This document shows, in pieces, positions 45,813 to 63,616 of a stretch of DNA of 64,000 nucleotides; position 1 is the stretch's first letter; every line of letters starts with the position of its first letter. Under the pieces are notes generated by a model. That model made no database searches. It was not told where the DNA came from and worked only from the letters and a program-made list of their open reading frames with translations. The stretch is from an uncultured candidate division Zixibacteria bacterium. GTDB taxonomy: Bacteria > Zixibacteria > MSB-5A5 > GN15 > FEB-12. The stretch is taken from contig CAWDXE010000006.1 of assembly GCA_963806185.1 (NCBI GenBank), positions 160,001-224,000 of the forward strand. Reading direction: 5' to 3'. Position numbers and translations under genes: made by a program.

Positions 45813-46057
45813 TCCTGTGGCCCGCCCATCGGGTGGGGTACGGTGTCCGCGCCGGAAAGACAATTCAAAAATCTCTATCCTGTTTTGGCACAAGGTAATC
45901 GCGAAGACGCGCGATGCATTGGGGCCTCAAACTAGCACATCCACTGACAGATTCTGTCAGTGATCGACCGGACTATCCACAAAATATCTCTTGACAAAGA
46001 CGTGGACTCGCATTAGGGATGTAGTTGTCATCGTCTTCGCGACGATGGGGAGGTTTC

Positions 46058-47134
46058 ATGACATCAAAGTGGCGAAAGCTATCACGGGCCGCGATCCCGC
46101 TCTGTTGGGTGGCGGTTGCCGTTTGGTTGGCGGGGTGTGATGATGATTTCGTCGTGCCTCCAGTGGGGCCGGAACCGGCTCACTTGTACTTCTTTGAAGG
46201 GAGCTACAACGATCAGATATTTCTGTTTGACCCGGTCGCCCTCAGTCTCGACTCGTTCATCCTTCCCGTGCTGGCACGCTGGGATATACGTGTGTCTCCC
46301 GATGAAAAGACACTCTACGTACCAAACGACGAGGGTCTGCATGTCATCGATCTTGCATCACGTCAAATGACGCAGACGCTCCCGTTTCTCGGATTCTGGC
46401 GGGTTGCTGTTTCGCCCGACGGTGCCTTTCTGGCCGTATTGGGCGACAGCCTGTTAGTCGTGCGAACCAGTGATTACTCGATCATTTACTCTGACACCAA
46501 TTCGGCCGTCTGGTGGGACCAGGGTCGGTTCAGCAGGGACAGCAAGCACTTTTTCTGCGCGAAGTTGTATTACTCACCTCCTGGACCACGGGCCTACGGT
46601 TCCGCTTTTCATTTGGACCTGAGGAAGAGGCCTTATCGCACCTCGGAGCGGGAACGCCCGGAAGGCGCCGTCCGCATGGTCGTGCCTTCGCCGCGCCTTG
46701 ATCGATGGCTGCTTATCATCGGCGGCGGCCGGTTTGCCGTGCTGGATACTCTGGGTGATTCGCTGATTTATGACGAAACGCTGCCGGGTCCGGCAGGTGC
46801 AGTGGTCGTGACTCCGGACGGCAGGAGAGTCGTCTATTCGTATCCCGGCAATCTCGGCTATCCGACTCAAGCGCATTCTTTCCGCATATATGATCTCTGT
46901 AGCAATCAGCGCGTAATGGAAGTTGAAACCTGGTTTGTCCGATCGGACAGCACGGTCGATTTCTTTCAACCATCATCTATCGTTTTCACCAGCGATGGAG
47001 ATCACATGTACTGCACCGGGTTCCTGAACGAGACAGGCTTTCTCATATTCGATGCGCGGACATTCGAGCAGGTATCGCAATTCGATTTCACACCGCGCCA
47101 GGCGGGATCACTTACTACCGTCGGCGTGCAATAA
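46058..47134 (+). CDS. Beta-propeller (YncE-like) lipoprotein
   Basis: GGAGG RBS, lipobox LAGC and repeated SPD/TPDG blade motifs. Confidence 0.7.
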   Translation: MTSKWRKLSRAAIPLCWVAVAVWLAGCDDDFVVPPVGPEPAHLYFFEGSYNDQIFLFDPVALSLDSFILPVLARWDIRVSPDEKTLYVPNDEGLHVIDLASRQMTQTLPFLGFWRVAVSPDGAFLAVLGDSLLVVRTSDYSIIYSDTNSAVWWDQGRFSRDSKHFFCAKLYYSPPGPRAYGSAFHLDLRKRPYRTSERERPEGAVRMVVPSPRLDRWLLIIGGGRFAVLDTLGDSLIYDETLPGPAGAVVVTPDGRRVVYSYPGNLGYPTQAHSFRIYDLCSNQRVMEVETWFVRSDSTVDFFQPSSIVFTSDGDHMYCTGFLNETGFLIFDARTFEQVSQFDFTPRQAGSLTTVGVQ

Positions 47135-47151
47135 GTAACTGGGAGGGGATT

Positions 47152-49026
47152 ATGCGTTGTTATCACTCATTCTTTATCACGAGTTTCGTGATTATAGGTC
47201 TTGTGTCAAGCGCTATTGGTGACGATCCGTACTACATCTATGATGGCAGACAGATTCCTGTAAGCGTCGACACGACCAAGATGGTACTGGCTCTACGAGA
47301 AGGAGAAGTGGTCAATGTCGGCAGCTTCATTGGCGGGCTAAGCCGAGTGAGGTCGTACGTGGCTCGTCATAACGGGTATGAGGAACTTTACATTTGTTCT
47401 CTAACGGTGTCGCATGATTACTTCCAGTACCTGGACACCGTACGCGCTGTCACTGCCGTCAGGTACGCGGGCCCTTTGTACAAAGATGGTAGCGGAAAGG
47501 ACCTGTTCGCAACTGACCTGATCTGCGCCGGATTCGATCCGACTCTTGACTCGATGACTATAGACTCCATTCTGCAACACAACGGAGTCGAAGCCGTCGC
47601 CGAGATAATGCATAACGCATGGTCAGCACGGAATGTGCAGCCCGGCGTGCGTGGCACTCTCGCGACGGCGAACGCACTTGCCGCTGAGCCGGGTGTAGAA
47701 TTTGCCGAGCCGGATTTTATGGGCAGCGTGGAAGTGTTTTCATACAAAGCGTACGATTACTTTCATCCGCGAAACCTACAAATAAAGGAAGTCATAGGCG
47801 AGTTCAACGAAAGAAGCGTGTGGGATTTTGCGCGCGTTGATCGACCCTGCACTGTCGCCATTCTGGATGACGGATTAATAAGCCATGAGGATATGCCTGA
47901 TTCGCGCCTCGTTCAAGGCAAAGACTGTTTTGGCTCCAGACTTACGTACCCATGGGCGCTTACAGCGCATGGGATGGGTTGCGCTGGAATCATCGGAGCA
48001 TCACACACGACCGATAGTACTCAAGGGTATTACAGCAACTCTGGGGTGATTTCCATGAACCCGCACAGCCTTCTGATGCCGATTCGCATGATCGACAGTC
48101 TTGGCGTAGCTGTGGTTCATTCTTTGGAAGCAGAGGGTATTCGGTATGCCTGGACACATGGAGCCGACATTTTGAACTGCTCTTGGGGTAATCCTAGACT
48201 GGGGGCCGGTAGTACCATAGTGGATTTGGCGCTTGATTCGGCATATACCTATGGCCGCAACGGTAGGGGATGCCTGATAATTGCCTCGACAGGTAACGAC
48301 GCCGATTGGCAACAGTTATGGTACGATTCGGTGTGGGTAAGCTGGCCGGCCCGCCTTGAATGCTGCTTTGCTGTTGGCGCTGTGGAACTACGAGATGTCC
48401 CCACTGGACAGTTCGCCTCCTTTAGCCAGTTTGGTCCTGAATTGGACATGGTTGCACCGGCAAGTGGCCCGGGTTTCATCAACGGGTATATGTGGACATT
48501 GGATCAAATGGGGTCATATGGCTATAATCCTGATGGCGTTATTGGACTGATTGGTTTATGGGATTGCCCTCCTACAGCGCCAAACAACCAGAATTACGAT
48601 TGCCATTTCGGGGGCACATCCGCCGCCGCTCCTGTCGTCTCCGGTGCCGCTTCGCTCGTCCTCGCATATAATGACACTCTGACGGCATCAACAGTCTACG
48701 ATATTCTTCGACACTCCGCCGTCCCAGTTGTTGGTTCTGTTCCGAGTGACACGTTTGGCTGGGGAGAGGTCGACGCCTTCCGGGCTGTCTTATCACTCGC
48801 GCGCGGCGATGCCGACAACAACGGGTCCGTTGACATCACCGACCTCACCCGTTTGATAGACTACTGGTTTATCTCTTTCGAGCCGCCGTTCCCAACTCCG
48901 CTTCTTGGGGACTGCAACTGCGACGGGCAGGTTGAGGCCTCTGGGGACCTTACGTATATGGTGAATTTCCTGTTTCTCGAAGGACCGCCGCCGGTGATTC
49001 CGTGTTTCCACTTCGAGGTACCATGA
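47152..49026 (+). CDS. S8 subtilase with a C-terminal dockerin
   Basis: Catalytic triad AILDDG / HGMGCAG / GTSAAAP; dockerin RGDADNNGSVDITDL...GDCNCDGQVEASGDL. Confidence 0.9.
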   Translation: MRCYHSFFITSFVIIGLVSSAIGDDPYYIYDGRQIPVSVDTTKMVLALREGEVVNVGSFIGGLSRVRSYVARHNGYEELYICSLTVSHDYFQYLDTVRAVTAVRYAGPLYKDGSGKDLFATDLICAGFDPTLDSMTIDSILQHNGVEAVAEIMHNAWSARNVQPGVRGTLATANALAAEPGVEFAEPDFMGSVEVFSYKAYDYFHPRNLQIKEVIGEFNERSVWDFARVDRPCTVAILDDGLISHEDMPDSRLVQGKDCFGSRLTYPWALTAHGMGCAGIIGASHTTDSTQGYYSNSGVISMNPHSLLMPIRMIDSLGVAVVHSLEAEGIRYAWTHGADILNCSWGNPRLGAGSTIVDLALDSAYTYGRNGRGCLIIASTGNDADWQQLWYDSVWVSWPARLECCFAVGAVELRDVPTGQFASFSQFGPELDMVAPASGPGFINGYMWTLDQMGSYGYNPDGVIGLIGLWDCPPTAPNNQNYDCHFGGTSAAAPVVSGAASLVLAYNDTLTASTVYDILRHSAVPVVGSVPSDTFGWGEVDAFRAVLSLARGDADNNGSVDITDLTRLIDYWFISFEPPFPTPLLGDCNCDGQVEASGDLTYMVNFLFLEGPPPVIPCFHFEVP

Positions 49027-49091: not shown

Positions 49092-49352
49092 GATCGCCAC
49101 GGCTCGCTCAGAAGCGAGCCTCGCGATGACTTCTCGGGCGGATTCTATCTGTATTCGCATGTCCCGGTGCTCACTCTTGCTCCCTCTCCCGCCGGGAGAG
49201 GGTTGGGGTGAGGGCCGGTGAGGGAGCGTCGGGCCACACAACGATACGAATTGTCGCAGGACCCGACGCAACAGGCAAGCTGCCCTGCTGGGTCGAAACC
49301 AGAAGGGTTCCGACCTACAAGATGTGCCGTCAGGCACGGGGGCCTGACGGCA
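49092..49352. repeat. Mosaic of REP-like palindromes between convergent genes
   Basis: GCTCGCT-CAGA-AGCGAGC, CCCTCTCCC-GCC-GGGAGAGGG, a GTAG-type element at 49291-49318 and TGTGCCGTCAGGC...GCCTGACGGCACA. Confidence 0.7.
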
Positions 49353-49362
49353 CATCTCCAAG

Positions 49363-50487
49363 TCAAGTATTCGCCGCCTTCTTCAGGCCCGGGGCCATGG
49401 CTTCCTTAAAGGGCTCCAGCGCTTTCGATACGTATTCCGGATCCTCGCAATGGATACCCTGCTCGTACTCCATCCGATACGTGCAGAAAGGATTGTTGGC
49501 GCGACTGCCGGTAGCCGAAACCGACGTGGTCGCACAGCCACCGCGACAGAGCGGCAGATACTTGCAGTCGTAGCAGAATCCATCGGCCGTGTCGCGGGTG
49601 AACTTGCGATTGTAGGACGCAAAATTCGGGTCATTCCAGATTTCGGTGAATGAGCGTTTGCGGATGTTCCCCTCGACGAATTGTTCCGGCATCGACAAAC
49701 AGCCTTTCACGTCGCCGTTGGATTCAATCCCCGCCACACGCGTGCCGGCAAAGCAGCCGAAGGTCGGGTCGCCGTCGCGCAGTTCGTACCCTTTGCAGCC
49801 GTAAAAGCCGATGTTTTCGCCGACGTCGATGCCGATATGTTCGTCTTTTTTCAGTTCGAGCAGCTTGTCGATAAACTGCGGGAACTTGTCGATGGTCAGC
49901 ACGTAGTTGGCGACTTCCTTCATGCGGCCGGTAGCCGTGGTCATCTGGATGCGCCAGGTGGGGCACTTGATGGCCACGAGCAGGTCACGAATGGCATCGA
50001 GCTCGCCCAGGTTAATGTTGGAGATCTGAGTGACGGCGCAGAACTTCATGCCGCGCTCGGAGAACATTTTCATGGCGGCATAGGCGCGTTCGAATGAGTC
50101 AGGGCGCTGGCGGATGTAGTTATGCGTTTCGCGCGTACCGTCGAAGCTGATTCCGATCTGGTCAAACTTCACTTTCTGCATCTGGTCGACCACCTCGGGT
50201 GTGACGGCATAGCCGTTGGAGATAATGGCTGTCTTAATGCCTCGGCTCTTGGCATGAAGGGCCAGTTTTTGCCAGTCTTTGCGCAGCAGGGGTTCGCCGC
50301 CGGAAAGGGTAATGATTTCGGTGCCGAGACCGGCGAGTTCGTCGATCAGCTTCAGCGCCTCATCGGTGGTCAATTCATCGGGGCGGGCCTTGCCGGCCGA
50401 GGTGCCGCAGTGGATGCACCGCATGTTGCACGCGAACGTGGTTTCCCACACGACATAGTGCGGAAAGAACTTAAAATCAGTAGTCAT
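49363..50487 (-). CDS. Radical SAM/SPASM enzyme, PlpX-like splicease (tyramine excision at XYG)
   Basis: CNMRCIHC. Segments WRIQMTTATGR, GENIGFYG, GCFAGTRVAGIESNGDVKGCLSMP and NNPFCTYR match PlpX-type motifs as I recall them. Neighbouring precursors contain PLYG. Confidence 0.8.
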   Translation of the reverse strand: MTTDFKFFPHYVVWETTFACNMRCIHCGTSAGKARPDELTTDEALKLIDELAGLGTEIITLSGGEPLLRKDWQKLALHAKSRGIKTAIISNGYAVTPEVVDQMQKVKFDQIGISFDGTRETHNYIRQRPDSFERAYAAMKMFSERGMKFCAVTQISNINLGELDAIRDLLVAIKCPTWRIQMTTATGRMKEVANYVLTIDKFPQFIDKLLELKKDEHIGIDVGENIGFYGCKGYELRDGDPTFGCFAGTRVAGIESNGDVKGCLSMPEQFVEGNIRKRSFTEIWNDPNFASYNRKFTRDTADGFCYDCKYLPLCRGGCATTSVSATGSRANNPFCTYRMEYEQGIHCEDPEYVSKALEPFKEAMAPGLKKAANT

Positions 50488-50492
50488 AGGAG

Positions 50493-51833
50493 CTACTCCT
50501 TTGCGGCGGGCTGAGCCTGCCGGTATCGTGAAAGAGCAATCATTTCCAGCATTTCCGGGAGATTGTATTTCCAAGCCTCACAAACATCGGTGTTTAGTTC
50601 ATTCGCCCGTTCGCGGCGCGCGGGGCAACCGCCCATGCAGATGGGCAGGATGTTGCACCCGGTGCATTCCGAGATATCGAACGGGTTGAACTGGTACAAC
50701 GACAGAAAGTTCGGGTGATGGTAATCTATGTCGTGGCGAATATTGCCGGCGGTCTTCGACTTGTCGCCGATAAAATTGAAACAGCGATAGATGTCGCCGT
50801 CCTGGTCGAGCACGAAACCATTCTTGGTCTGCGCCATGCAGAAATGCGACATTGGCTGCGGCAGTTTTTCCACCTTTAAACCGTGCTGCAGCATGACGCG
50901 GAAGAAATTCGATTCGATCTTTGAGAAGTCGGAGAAGGTGTAACAGTCCTCGGCAATATTACTGCAGACCTCGGTGGCCGGGTCGAGGCAGCCGAAGTAG
51001 ACGTGGATGCGATCGCTGATTCCCGCGACCTTGAATTCGTTGAGCATCTCGACAATGGTATCCTCCGTGAAGGACCGATCAATATTGACGCGGACGCCAA
51101 TGCCGAGCCTGGTCGAGGCGTAGGCGATATTCTTGAGAATACGATCGAAGCTGGGCTTACCATTCTTGAGTGGACGTTTTACGTTGTGCAGGCGCGAAGG
51201 GCCGTCGACGGTCACCTGCACGGTCGCCACTTTGAGGGCCCGCAGTTTGTCGACCGTGGCTTCGTCGAGCAGGTAGCCGTTGGTGATCATGCTGGCGGTG
51301 TAGTCGAAGGTGTGCTCAGCCTGCAGGGCAAAGACGGCCTGGGTGAGGTACTCGATAGTATCCATGGCCAAAAGCGGTTCGCCGCCGTACCAGGAGATGC
51401 TGAGTCCTTTGCATTTGGCAATCCGTTGTTTGACGAAAGCGATCAGGGCGTCAGCCGTTTCGCGCGACATCTTCCCTTTCTTGTTCGTCTCATAACAGTA
51501 CGGGCAGGCCATATTACAGGCCATGGACGGCGCGACGACGAGGCCCAGGGCCTCCTCGGTTTCGCGGGCCATCAGATGCTGATCGTGCAGGGTGGCCAGC
51601 TCATCGAGGTCCTCGGGGCGCGTGAAACCGCCATAGTTCATCTGATTGAGAAGTTGTTCTTCCTCGGTTGTGAACACGGCGGCAGGACGGTCGGTGAGTT
51701 TATGGGCAACCAGCTGATAGGTCGCGAAGTTTTCCGGGTTCATGACCGCCAAGGCGCCGGAGCGAGCGTTGTAGGCCAAGTACATGCCGTCACGCCAGGG
51801 CACGATGACGTTGTAGCGAGAGAGCTTTTGCAT
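50493..51833 (-). CDS. Radical SAM/SPASM peptide maturase with an N-terminal RRE-like extension, probably forming Cys thioethers
   Basis: About 105 aa precede CNMACPYC; WYGGEP; SPASM cysteines CMAQ...YRC...CTGCNILPICMGGCP...C. Confidence 0.85.
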   Translation of the reverse strand: MQKLSRYNVIVPWRDGMYLAYNARSGALAVMNPENFATYQLVAHKLTDRPAAVFTTEEEQLLNQMNYGGFTRPEDLDELATLHDQHLMARETEEALGLVVAPSMACNMACPYCYETNKKGKMSRETADALIAFVKQRIAKCKGLSISWYGGEPLLAMDTIEYLTQAVFALQAEHTFDYTASMITNGYLLDEATVDKLRALKVATVQVTVDGPSRLHNVKRPLKNGKPSFDRILKNIAYASTRLGIGVRVNIDRSFTEDTIVEMLNEFKVAGISDRIHVYFGCLDPATEVCSNIAEDCYTFSDFSKIESNFFRVMLQHGLKVEKLPQPMSHFCMAQTKNGFVLDQDGDIYRCFNFIGDKSKTAGNIRHDIDYHHPNFLSLYQFNPFDISECTGCNILPICMGGCPARRERANELNTDVCEAWKYNLPEMLEMIALSRYRQAQPAAKE

Positions 51834-52061
51834 CGTCTGTAGTGGTCCCTTTTGTTATCTATTGGCGCCCAACGGTGAGCAGGTACCCGGTCTCGTCGTT
51901 GTCGCCTGATTAATTAACAGTCACCAGCAGGACTTCGCCCCACTTGGTGCATGGCCACCCGGAGAAGAAAGGCGAAATTGGGGGAGGCTACTGTCGTCGA
52001 TTGAACGACGAACGGGAACCTCCCTTTCCTGTTTGTGCCAGGTCAAATCGTTGTTACGCGA

Positions 52062-52187
52062 TTAGACCTCGACGCCGTAGAGCGGCACGCCATAGAGCGG
52101 CTTAATTCCGCACTTGCTAGGGCAGAGGAACTTGAGCGTGCAGACGCTCGGGCCCTGAACAACGGACGGATCAATGATGAATACCAT
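52062..52187 (-). CDS. RiPP precursor A1: MVFIIDPSVVQGPSVCTLKFLCPSKCGIKPLYGVPLYGVEV (41 aa)
   Basis: Translated by hand; AGGGAGG RBS; homologous to A2; upstream of two rSAM genes. Confidence 0.9.
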   Translation of the reverse strand: MVFIIDPSVVQGPSVCTLKFLCPSKCGIKPLYGVPLYGVEV

Positions 52188-52401
52188 CAAGGACCTCCCT
52201 TGGTTTTAGGGTGTAGCACATTGCAGAACAATCCCGTCGGAGAATCCGACAGGATATTTGGTAGTTAACATCACGGTCCTCTATTCTTTGCGCACACCCG
52301 AACGACAGGGCGCAGGAATTCGCAAAGTGAGGTAGGATCCGTGTGCTCATATATTTTGGTTAGGGAGGGCCTGAGCCCCCTCATGCTCCAGTATTTGTCT
52401 C

Positions 52402-52430
52402 AAAATGTCGACATGTCACCGAATTGTCAA
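52402..52430 (-). promoter_or_regulatory. Putative promoter of precursor A1
   Basis: TTGACA-17 nt-CATTTT. Confidence 0.55.
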
Positions 52431-52584
52431 GACGAAAATGGGCAGAGGCACCCATTACTCTACCTTCAGAGCATGTTCGTCGAGATGCAACTCAATCCAG
52501 CGTAAGCAATTGAGGGAGGCCCAGGCGAGCCGAGAGCGCGCATCGACCTCCCTTGAGATGTCTGTGATCAGCAAGCCGCCTTTA

Positions 52585-52710
52585 TCAAGTGGTCGGCACG
52601 CCGTACAGCGGCTCGTAGAAATCGAGCGGGCACTTCGTCGTGCACACAATGATCTTCAGAGGGCACGGTTTCGGACCCAGGACAGTTGAGGGGTCAATAA
52701 TGAAAACCAT
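52585..52710 (-). CDS. RiPP precursor A2: MVFIIDPSTVLGPKPCPLKIIVCTTKCPLDFYEPLYGVPTT (41 aa)
   Basis: Translated by hand; GGAGG RBS; double stop TGATAA; shares the MVFIIDPS leader, three Cys and PLYGVP with A1. Confidence 0.9.
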   Translation of the reverse strand: MVFIIDPSTVLGPKPCPLKIIVCTTKCPLDFYEPLYGVPTT

Positions 52711-52940
52711 CTTCGGCCTCCAGGTTTGAGGGTTAATGCATTGCAGAGCGTCTTGCCGCACGGGCCGGCACGACGGTGAAATTCAAAAACTTTGTCCCGC
52801 TTGCGGTAAAGCCGTCAATTGGCTGCGAGGAGTGAGAGGTGCAATACCGCATAAAGCGATGTGTGCTCCAAAGAACCAATTGAGGAGAGAACTCCTCAGT
52901 TGCCGGTTTGACGTACCAATTTGATCAAAAGATATCATCA

Positions 52941-52969
52941 AAAGTGGTGTCTGGTCGCGAGCTTGTCAA
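52941..52969 (-). promoter_or_regulatory. Putative promoter of precursor A2
   Basis: TTGACA-17 nt-CACTTT, mirroring the A1 promoter. Confidence 0.55.
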
Positions 52970-62067: not shown

Positions 62068-62169
62068 ATGAAACTCATCAGACTACCAGGGATCGACCCG
62101 ATCGAGAAGCCCCATTACATCATCTGCAGCATTAATGGGCCGTACAAGATTATCTGCTCGAAATACTAG
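62068..62169 (+). CDS. RiPP precursor B: MKLIRLPGIDPIEKPHYIICSINGPYKIICSKY (33 aa)
   Basis: Translated by hand; AAAGGAG RBS; internal 10-aa-period repeat; directly upstream of rSAM genes. Confidence 0.82.
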   Translation: MKLIRLPGIDPIEKPHYIICSINGPYKIICSKY

Positions 62170-62195
62170 CAGGTAGTTTTGTCAAGTTGACGCTG

Positions 62196-62221
62196 TGCGC
62201 CGGCAGTTGACTGTCGGCGCA
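62196..62221 (+). terminator. Stem-loop between precursor B and its maturase
   Basis: TGCGCCGGCAG-TTGA-CTGTCGGCGCA with no U-tract, so more likely a stabiliser or attenuator. Confidence 0.55.
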
Positions 62222-62278
62222 TATGCTAATCCCAGTGCCGGTTCGGGCGCCGCACGAAATACTTCCCTCGGGGCTAAT

Positions 62279-63616
62279 ATGAAACCTTCGCCGTTTAACC
62301 ACTTCTTTTCGATCAGTGCCGGCCGGACAATTCTGGCCTATAATGCCTTCTCTGGCGCCTTAGCCGAAATTGAAAGCGAAAATTATGACCGCGTCGTCCA
62401 CCTGCTCAATCATCCCGATCAGGCGCAGTCGGCGCAGGATCAGGAATACCTTGAGTATCTCAAACAGGGCGGCTTCCTCATCGCCGATCCGGTCGACCAA
62501 ATCACGGCTCTCCAAATGCACGGACGGGCGGTCCGGAACCAATCCGCCGCGCTAACCCTGACAATCGCTCCGACACTCGCGTGCAATTTTGACTGCGACT
62601 ACTGCTTCGAGTCCCGGTCAAACGTGCGGATGTCGGAGGAAACGCAGGCGGCCCTCATTCGGTTCACCGATTACCAGCTCCGGCGGGCCGATGCCCTCCG
62701 CGTCTGCTGGTTCGGCGGCGAACCGACCCTCTGCTTTTCAATGATTGAGAAGATGCAGACGCAGCTTCTCGAACTGGCGGCCAAGTGGCGGACCGAAGTC
62801 GTTCCGGGACGGATCATTTCCAACGGGTACCTTCTGGACGCCGCCATGGCGACCCGCCTCAAAGAACTGCTGATTACCGATGCGCAGATCACGCTGGACG
62901 GTCCTGAGACGGTGCACGACGGTCGACGCAAATTGCGGAACGGCAAAGGGAGTTTTGCCCGCATTATCGAGAACCTGCAGGCGACCGTCGACACGCTGTC
63001 GATCACCATTCGCGTCAACATCGATCGCGGCAATGTCGACTCGGCGTGGGAGGTGGTCGAGTATCTCCACAAACTGGGTATTCTGCCCAAGGTGCGGCTG
63101 ACGTTCGCCCAGGTGCAATCGACCGGCGCGGCCTGCTCCAATATCCGCGATCGCTGTTATGATACGGAGGATTTCGCGCGCTCAGTGGTCATGCTGTACC
63201 AGCGCCTGATGGCGGCAGGGATCGGACGGGTTGATTATCCGCGTGCGCTCGGCGGTGTGGCGTGCGGAGCGGTGGCCGGCGGCCAGTATGTCATCTCACC
63301 AGTCGGACAACTCTTCCGCTGCTGGGAGGATTTGTCGATGGACGGCCGCCGCTCGATCGGCGATATCTTCTCGACGGAAACCACCGACCAGCAGAAGGCG
63401 GTCGCCGCGGCATACCATTCGTGGGATCCGGTCAACCTCTCGGAATGCAAATCGTGCAATGTCCTTCCGATTTGTCTCGGCGGCTGTCCGCTGCACGCGA
63501 TGGAGACGGCCAGCACCACCTGCGGCCTCTGCTCGGCATGGAAATACAATCTCGGCGACATGCTCCACATGGCCTACACGGCCGATGTCGCGACGGCCCA
63601 GGAGCAAAGCCGATGA
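62279..63616 (+). CDS. Radical SAM/SPASM peptide maturase, paralog of 50493-51833
   Basis: LAYNAFSGALA, CNFDCDYC, WFGGEP, RVNIDR, CKSCNVLPICLGGCP and WKYNL. Confidence 0.88.
   Translation: MKPSPFNHFFSISAGRTILAYNAFSGALAEIESENYDRVVHLLNHPDQAQSAQDQEYLEYLKQGGFLIADPVDQITALQMHGRAVRNQSAALTLTIAPTLACNFDCDYCFESRSNVRMSEETQAALIRFTDYQLRRADALRVCWFGGEPTLCFSMIEKMQTQLLELAAKWRTEVVPGRIISNGYLLDAAMATRLKELLITDAQITLDGPETVHDGRRKLRNGKGSFARIIENLQATVDTLSITIRVNIDRGNVDSAWEVVEYLHKLGILPKVRLTFAQVQSTGAACSNIRDRCYDTEDFARSVVMLYQRLMAAGIGRVDYPRALGGVACGAVAGGQYVISPVGQLFRCWEDLSMDGRRSIGDIFSTETTDQQKAVAAAYHSWDPVNLSECKSCNVLPICLGGCPLHAMETASTTCGLCSAWKYNLGDMLHMAYTADVATAQEQSR

Follow-up and report, generated by a model that had tools for sequence, protein, structure and literature searches.

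A zixibacterial peptide cassette pairing a splicease-like radical SAM enzyme with a putative thioether maturase

Introduction

The closest described relatives of the locus reported here are three kinds of system for peptides that are made by the ribosome and modified after translation (RiPP systems). In the spliceotides, a radical S-adenosylmethionine (SAM)/SPASM enzyme is encoded beside precursors with an X-Tyr-Gly site, X being Leu or Met; PlpX/PlpY/PlpA and PcpXYA (type I, Pleurocapsa, TIGR04103) and the binary, type II RhaX, RcsX and RasX systems belong here. LYG and MYG are proven splice sites of PlpXY, RcsX and RasX (PMC10533398, PMC11626197), and the known spliceases need either PlpY, the Y protein, or a helical leader (PMC11414181). 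Clo7bot is defined bioinformatically, by the TIGR04334 maturase and the cysteine-rich TIGR04333 peptides. CrpC/CrpA of Methanococcus voltae (TIGR04463), CteB and PapB combine a RiPP recognition element (RRE), a radical SAM domain and a seven-cysteine SPASM domain with an adjoining cysteine-rich substrate, and CrpC makes thioethers, probably ranthionines (PMC13692751). Here we describe a cassette in a 64,000-nucleotide stretch of DNA (the window) from an uncultured candidate division Zixibacteria bacterium (contig CAWDXE010000006.1, positions 160,001 to 224,000), in which two 41-residue precursor genes, A1 and A2, are followed by genes for two radical SAM enzymes, B and X (Table 1). The cassette is real and widespread, and is a predicted, apparently undescribed hybrid of two known peptide chemistries.

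With the spliceotide systems the cassette has in common the P-L-Y-G-V core context, several paralogous precursors and the wider enzyme clade. Unlike in those systems, X is only 33-38% identical to the spliceotide families and lies outside their clade, there is neither a Nif11 or DUF1843 leader nor a separate Y/RRE protein, the leader has about 14 residues, and the cassette has a fixed second maturase, CxxxC cores, often a B12-binding radical SAM enzyme and an exporter, and in some precursors Cys as the X of X-Tyr-Gly. Clo7bot is the best family over the full length of B, and its peptides share the short hydrophobic leader ending in Pro and the CxxxC cores; a terminal P-x-Y-G and an adjoining splicease, both seen in the cassette family, are missing from Clo7bot peptides and their loci, and both B and the precursors fall below the Clo7bot cut-offs. 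CteB is the best relative of B with a solved structure. In CrpA the acceptor lies in a C-x-x-Q/D motif, and in freyrasin Cys is joined to Asp, whereas the peptides described here have no such conserved acceptor; in the literature consulted, neither CrpC nor CteB nor PapB has a splicease partner.

Results

B is encoded directly upstream of X in 56 of 56 X copies of at least 50% identity, and in none of four weaker paralogues. The loci came from a search of 100 relatives (38 of the 41 non-own matches, as separate regions, one more lying inside one of these) and from a profile search (20 loci); the genomes are kin, so locus counts are not independent, which tempers all the counts given here. A scan for the leader motif, with Tyr-Gly not required, found 109 peptides in 52 of the 56 loci, two of the other four being truncated by contig ends, and 103 of the 109 carry Tyr-Gly (PLYG 67, PMYG 19, PCYG 14, other 3). 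Third codon positions of the Pro, Tyr and Gly vary freely, with synonymous changes, over 105 genes. The original prediction, made from this window, had proposed a hybrid RiPP locus and named conservation of the small open reading frames (ORFs) beside homologous radical SAM pairs as a check on it; that conservation is seen in these 52 loci and, with the position of X in a wider Tyr-Gly-associated clade (below), supports the hybrid interpretation.

A1 and A2 have the features first read from them: a common leader, MVFIIDPS, the pattern C-x5/6-C-x3-C (cysteines at 16/22/26 in A1 and 16/23/27 in A2) and PLYG, once in A2 (Tyr-Gly at 36) and in tandem in A1 (Tyr-Gly at 32 and 37). The tandem is a one-off, found in A1 only, one of the 120 database homologues listed; multi-site precursors are present in type I splicease systems according to our neighbor survey. 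A1 and A2 match each other by tblastn (E 2e-6), with no other match in the 3.65-Mb genome at E<=1e-3, and they are among 17 of 23,386 genome ATG ORFs of 20-100 residues with a terminal [PAG][LVIMAK]YG motif. The calculated monoisotopic masses of the unmodified peptides, Met1 included, are 4395.32 for A1 and 4508.35 for A2. The two units are a duplicated module that includes shared 5' DNA and has acquired synonymous changes. The very short, non-Nif11 leader and the lack of annotation also stand as predicted: the leader has the length given above, no Pfam or NCBIfam model matched A1 or A2, and a precursor profile search gave 246 database homologues, of which all 120 among the matches listed are unnamed or "hypothetical protein". 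The profile itself contains Tyr-Gly, and its homologues are thus no unbiased motif count. One homologue is labelled Terriglobales, possibly a binning error. TIGR04333 matched 2 of 30 peptides tested, weakly (best 21 bits against 31), and neither A1 nor A2.

Which enzyme goes with which part of the peptide? The window (from 62068) and many relatives contain a sister cassette, in which B', with about 33% identity to B, is paired with X2, an enzyme distinct from X (about 29% identity). This cassette is conserved in about 21 loci of relatives, and its peptides carry a motif of the YIIC/FIIC type and lack Tyr-Gly; Tyr-Gly is found in 0 of 14 leader-like peptides from 9 of these loci, selected by a filter for a ribosome-binding site and two cysteines and then by eye, and five discarded candidates also lack it. 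Three further cysteine-rich peptides stand by a third B paralogue of this genome, with no X nearby, and none has Tyr-Gly, making 0 of 17 control peptides. The B profile retrieved a true Clo7bot locus, and metagenome loci of more distant B homologues contain true Clo7bot peptides with the same leader type and CxxxC and without terminal P-x-Y-G. Because the sister cassettes, which have no X, keep leader and cysteines without Tyr-Gly, Tyr-Gly travels with X, and leader and cysteines travel with the B-family enzymes, a co-occurrence to be read as a pattern and not as a statistic. The clearest exception, which counts against it, is a Tyr-Ser peptide before an intact-looking B and X pair at L054/L096 (G092:C20).

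That locus has tandem B copies and four peptides without Tyr-Gly, the Tyr-Ser peptide being one of the four, and no other X in the larger, 86-row set has a branch as long as its X, possibly reflecting relaxed selection. The third B paralogue (L060, G000:C1:316463-318468) is apparently split into a 60-residue RRE part and a 397-residue part; 3' of it lie the peptides, of 40-61 residues with an MKW-type leader and CxxxC repeats, and ABC-2-type transporter genes.

What might B do to the cysteines? Its best NCBIfam models are TIGR04334 (327.5 bits, cut-off 600) and TIGR04463 (304.9 bits, cut-off 525), followed by FlmE/OhkG, geopeptide, CefB and PapB. The B profile aligns with CteB from position 19 and with TigE from position 4, covering their N-terminal domains, and the N-terminal 95 residues are similar to small clusters, in one of which 11% of the members have PqqD; the profile match and a feature search suggest an RRE-like N-terminal domain. 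The seven SPASM cysteines, invariant Cys332/351/390/393/399/403/418, align with those of CteB. A predicted RRE-radical SAM-SPASM enzyme with seven SPASM cysteines beside cysteine-rich precursors is the arrangement of sacti- and ranthipeptide loci, and from this family likeness, there being no conserved acceptor residue, B probably makes Cys-to-carbon thioethers. The peptides are compatible with such an activity: of 74 distinct peptides, 66 have the first Cys at position 14-16 and 40 an odd number of cysteines, and 92 of their 132 Cys intervals have the CxxxC spacing. Odd counts and this spacing suit enzyme-made thioethers better than disulfides.

Several features weigh against thioether synthesis by B. 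It is below the cut-off of every family model, it also resembles TigE, which does not form thioethers, it has two extra invariant cysteines, Cys290 and Cys297, and no D/E/N/Q acceptor is conserved at a fixed offset as it is in PapB/CrpC-type ranthipeptides, since at offsets from -5 to +6 around 205 cysteines these four residues are never among the most frequent (at i+3, Lys accounts for 40% and aromatic residues for 26%). The literature searched, seen in excerpts, gave no chemistry for the Clo7bot family, nor did PMC12703449 give any for FlmE/OhkG. X could splice Tyr-Gly while B performs another radical modification (a C-C or C-O cross-link, a cyclopropane or an epimer) or contributes chiefly through its RRE; the cysteines would then be left to form disulfides, to bind metal or to stay as free thiols. 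The spliceotides RasA and RcsA do carry a disulfide (PMC11626197). We consider this the best of the alternatives, although an unlikely one: it sits poorly with the odd cysteine counts and the strict spacing, with a seven-cysteine SPASM as in CteB and CrpC, and with B-family enzymes that adjoin cysteine-rich peptides with or without X.

Turning to X, conserved X-Tyr-Gly peptides beside it and its place among wider PlpX relatives make it very probable that X is a splicease, which would excise tyramine at X-Tyr-Gly, a removal of C8H9NO (135.07 Da). In a tree of 37 rows, rooted on AhbD/NirJ (49 of 86 rows, those with long branches among them, were left out), X groups with TIGR04133 and the core spliceases at 99/95, apart from X2 and AhbD/NirJ; X is a clade of its own (100/100) next to the core (87/87). 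Grouping X with X2 is rejected (approximately unbiased test, p-AU 0.0006), and a quick tree of the larger row set agrees with the 37-row tree. Clear Tyr-Gly motifs occur in neighbors of the core families, of L098, of L187 and in 2 of 5 TIGR04133 loci, and several other rows have neighbors in which no Tyr-Gly motif was seen. Type I neighbors often carry PLYG[VI]. We take TIGR04103 to be IPR026482, and Nif11 precursors with LYG beside TIGR04103 members agree with this; PlpX belongs to IPR026482 (PMC11002830). The AlphaFold2 model of X has a radical SAM/SPASM fold (predicted local distance difference test score 90.9), with no solved splicease structure among its structure matches.

A number of results count the other way. 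X scores below the curated cut-offs of its best NCBIfam models, TIGR03913 (242.7 bits against 591.75, about 40%) and TIGR04103 (224.1 bits against 725, about 30%), and it lies outside the 100/100 clade of named splicease families. Thus the original placement of X in the splicease clade holds for the wider Tyr-Gly-associated clade and fails for the named-family core and its cut-offs. The same test does not reject a tree with X basal to every Tyr-Gly-associated group (p-AU 0.12), and the tree rows are family members only, without the proven PlpX, PcpX and RhaX sequences. X matches the core in 21 of the 49 columns diagnostic for it, and matches 6 of the 12 columns common to the core and TIGR04133, it has a nearly invariant extra Cys231, and the cassette has neither the Y protein nor the helical leader that known spliceases need: there is no room for a Y (RRE) gene between B and X, and in the 56 loci no extra conserved ORF of at least 90 residues besides the B12 enzyme and the exporter. 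The second site of A1 is uncertain, because not every Tyr-Gly is spliced, the DYG of RcsA being an unspliced one (PMC11626197). With 28 core-diagnostic residues missing, X might instead perform other radical chemistry at Tyr-Gly, for example cross-linking the Tyr, or fragmenting it and leaving the backbone un-joined. This is improbable, since Tyr-Gly-bearing neighbors lie on both sides of X in the tree, the P-[LM]-Y-G-[VI] context of the peptides equals that of type I cores, and TIGR04133 enzymes keep even fewer core columns (23%; X2 keeps 6%) yet adjoin Tyr-Gly proteins.

By analogy with engineered fusions (PMC11414181), we considered the predicted C-terminal helix of X (351-372) as a built-in substitute for PlpY. 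The orthologues L300-L303 and L237 end near residue 343 and have the same B-X pair, three of them with the same peptides; because these close orthologues stop short and keep the pair, the terminal helix is not required, and the idea was dropped.

Two further observations concern X-like and splicease-like enzymes. At L059 (G052:C3:943682-944755), an X-like protein (40%) has kept the radical SAM part and lost several SPASM cysteines, with no B adjoining and a 204-residue protein with Tyr-Gly motifs upstream. At L210-L217, splicease-like enzymes of Cyanobacteriota adjoin small proteins whose start resembles a zinc ribbon and in which Tyr-Gly comes directly after a lipobox Cys.

The X sequence matched 36 of 100 relatives. 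Its profile matched 85 of the 285 phylum genomes, every one of them from the class of the window's organism, at least one of the 85 being a distant paralogue (G529, 35%); named homologues of X are labelled Candidatus Zixibacteria. A genome-contig scan with X alone gave no match, a second only distant enzymes of at most 40% identity, and because the second covered 3 of 64 parts, the range outside the phylum is barely sampled. Clustering of flanking ORFs of at least 90 residues in the 56 loci, several of them cut short, gave only two recurrent genes besides the core: 33 loci have a gene for a radical SAM enzyme that binds B12, and 39 have one for an MsbA-like ABC exporter with no peptidase domain match, so that the full order is precursors-B-X-[B12 enzyme]-[exporter]; no protease recurs. 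It is very unlikely that the family works as described while this copy is a reduced relic that has lost methyltransferase and exporter and neither makes nor exports a product: neither gene follows X in the window and no B12 enzyme homologue is present in the assembly, which is 82% complete, but each of the four ORFs is undamaged and has a ribosome site, contig C1 encodes an isolated exporter of 60% identity (G000:C1:878736-880502), 16 other loci likewise lack the B12 enzyme, and, as a weak further point, RNA libraries from two studies contain near-identical contigs of A1, A2 and parts of X.

The RNA-library contigs match A1, A2 and parts of X at a depth of 2-5, with 0 differences over the A1 region (52031-52240) and 2 over the A2 region (52580-52767). 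They are a weak hint of expression of A1, A2 and X, because they show neither strand nor level, DNA may be present in the libraries and there is no silent control; the sequencing runs contained at most 7% of the words.

The B12-binding radical SAM enzyme, 3' of X at L057 (1885-3315) and in 32 other loci, is of no named family. The peptide motif C-x-I-K-P, one of ten motifs tried, is present in 24 of 31 loci with this enzyme and 6 of 17 without it, in related genomes, and A1 has the motif although its assembly lacks the enzyme. Pro-Cys-Tyr-Gly peptides (14 of 103) occur at L025, L026, L029, L032, L034, L035, L053, L301, L314 and L315; if spliced, they would yield a ketoamide of beta-Cys, and so a warhead that bears a thiol. 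At L029, L041, L043 and L055, some peptides have extra Cys repeats after Tyr-Gly.

The gene order on the minus strand is A2, A1, B, X (Table 1). The two closely spaced radical SAM/SPASM genes noted originally are B and X, both with Pfam Radical_SAM and SPASM; the gene content of the span first proposed (49363-52969) is right, and its end takes in about 260 bases of upstream non-coding DNA. X starts with ATG, its AAGGAG ribosome site overlapping the last codons of B, and the 403-residue TTG start in the ORF list, which overlaps B, is probably not used. Hairpins follow A2 and A1, that after A2 possibly stabilizing the precursor message; two other candidate hairpins, folded alongside, gave z -0.21 and -3.00. 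A GGAGG within the hairpin after A1 has no start codon behind it. Neither the A2-A1 interval nor the A1-B interval was accepted as holding a third precursor, the GGAGG sites there being hairpin arms and the ORFs lacking the family motif. The neighboring M24 peptidase, Nudix and S8 protease genes, which do not recur in the 56 loci, were rejected as pathway parts. A promoter and terminator scan at the locus gave chance-level results.

Table 1. Features of the B-X cassette and of the sister cassette. Positions are in the window unless a locus is named.
Feature	Position	Strand	Remarks
A2 precursor gene, 41 aa	52585-52710	-	ATG start, GGAGG six bases upstream
Hairpin 3' of A2, stem GGGAGG...CCUCCC	52513-52553	-	fold -26.3 kcal/mol, z -2.37, 3/200 shuffles as good
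A1 precursor gene, 41 aa	52062-52187	-	ATG start, GGAGG six bases upstream
Hairpin 3' of A1, outer stem as after A2	51982-52024	-	fold -27.3 kcal/mol, z -4.07, 0/200 shuffles as good
B, radical SAM/SPASM maturase with RRE-like domain, 446 aa	50493-51833	-	
X, splicease-like radical SAM/SPASM enzyme, 374 aa, without RRE	49363-50487	-	
Sister cassette, 33-aa two-Cys peptide with strong ribosome site	62068-62169	+	
Sister cassette, B-like RRE maturase, 32% to B	62195-63616	+	
Sister cassette, X2, radical SAM/SPASM, 29% to X	L001 4614-5642	+	best NCBIfam 170 bits

Just beyond the end of X lies a short palindromic repeat resembling repetitive extragenic palindromic (REP) elements (49175-49220; also near 5690 of L001), which attracts many unrelated contigs in sequencing runs. 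On the plus strand (46025-49026 and L001 7694-8770) lie a gene for a lipoprotein resembling a beta-propeller, then one for an S8 protease whose tail is dockerin-like, and, about 20 kb downstream, a near-identical copy of the propeller gene, which adjoins a transposase-like ORF (L001 6017-7201).

Discussion

How could such a cassette have arisen and what would it make? An ancestral Clo7bot-like module, with a short beta-strand leader, a CxxxC core and an RRE maturase, may have gained a C-terminal splice site together with a splicease. The RRE of B would hold the leader while B links Cys sulfur to nearby carbons, and X would excise tyramine at Leu-Tyr-Gly, leaving a product with two or three rings and a ketoamide near the C-terminus, possibly two in the case of A1. 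With no protease conserved in the cassette, we propose that an unlinked protease removes the leader; export would be by the ABC transporter that lies 3' of the cassette in most relatives and elsewhere in this genome. The B12 radical SAM enzyme of most relatives would add methyl groups, and the product of this genome would be without them. That both activities operate, giving a thioether-cyclized peptide with a beta-Leu ketoamide, is somewhat favored by the comparative evidence.

Rings closed by thioethers make peptides more rigid and shield them. Ketoamides serve as warheads in inhibitors of proteases, and those spliceotides that have been assayed do inhibit such enzymes (PMC11414181, PMC9811515); the product would probably act as a protease inhibitor. 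More speculatively, and with a good deal less chance of being right as a whole, up to three radical SAM enzymes might act on one precursor of 30-45 residues, with the RRE of B also serving the splicease in place of PlpY, a CxxxC ladder linked to non-acidic residues, and PCYG members carrying a beta-Cys ketoamide whose sulfur could close a ring at the warhead. Such peptides might be a new RiPP class of natural macrocyclic ketoamide protease inhibitors, from a phylum without a described natural product in the literature searched. Neither a zixibacterial RiPP of this kind nor a pairing of a splicease with a thioether maturase appeared in full-text literature searches, seen in excerpts and excluding supplements and the principal survey devoted to spliceases (Scott et al. 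2022, Chem), which could list the clade.

If both activities operate as proposed, a gene-encoded route to a ketoamide and thioethers on so short a precursor would offer a ready starting point for libraries of macrocyclic ketoamides, for which more than 240 natural precursor variants map the tolerance of the enzymes. B would provide the first chemistry for Clo7bot-like maturases, X would show a splicease working without a Y protein or a helical leader, and a natural product would be assigned to about three in ten species of Zixibacteria.

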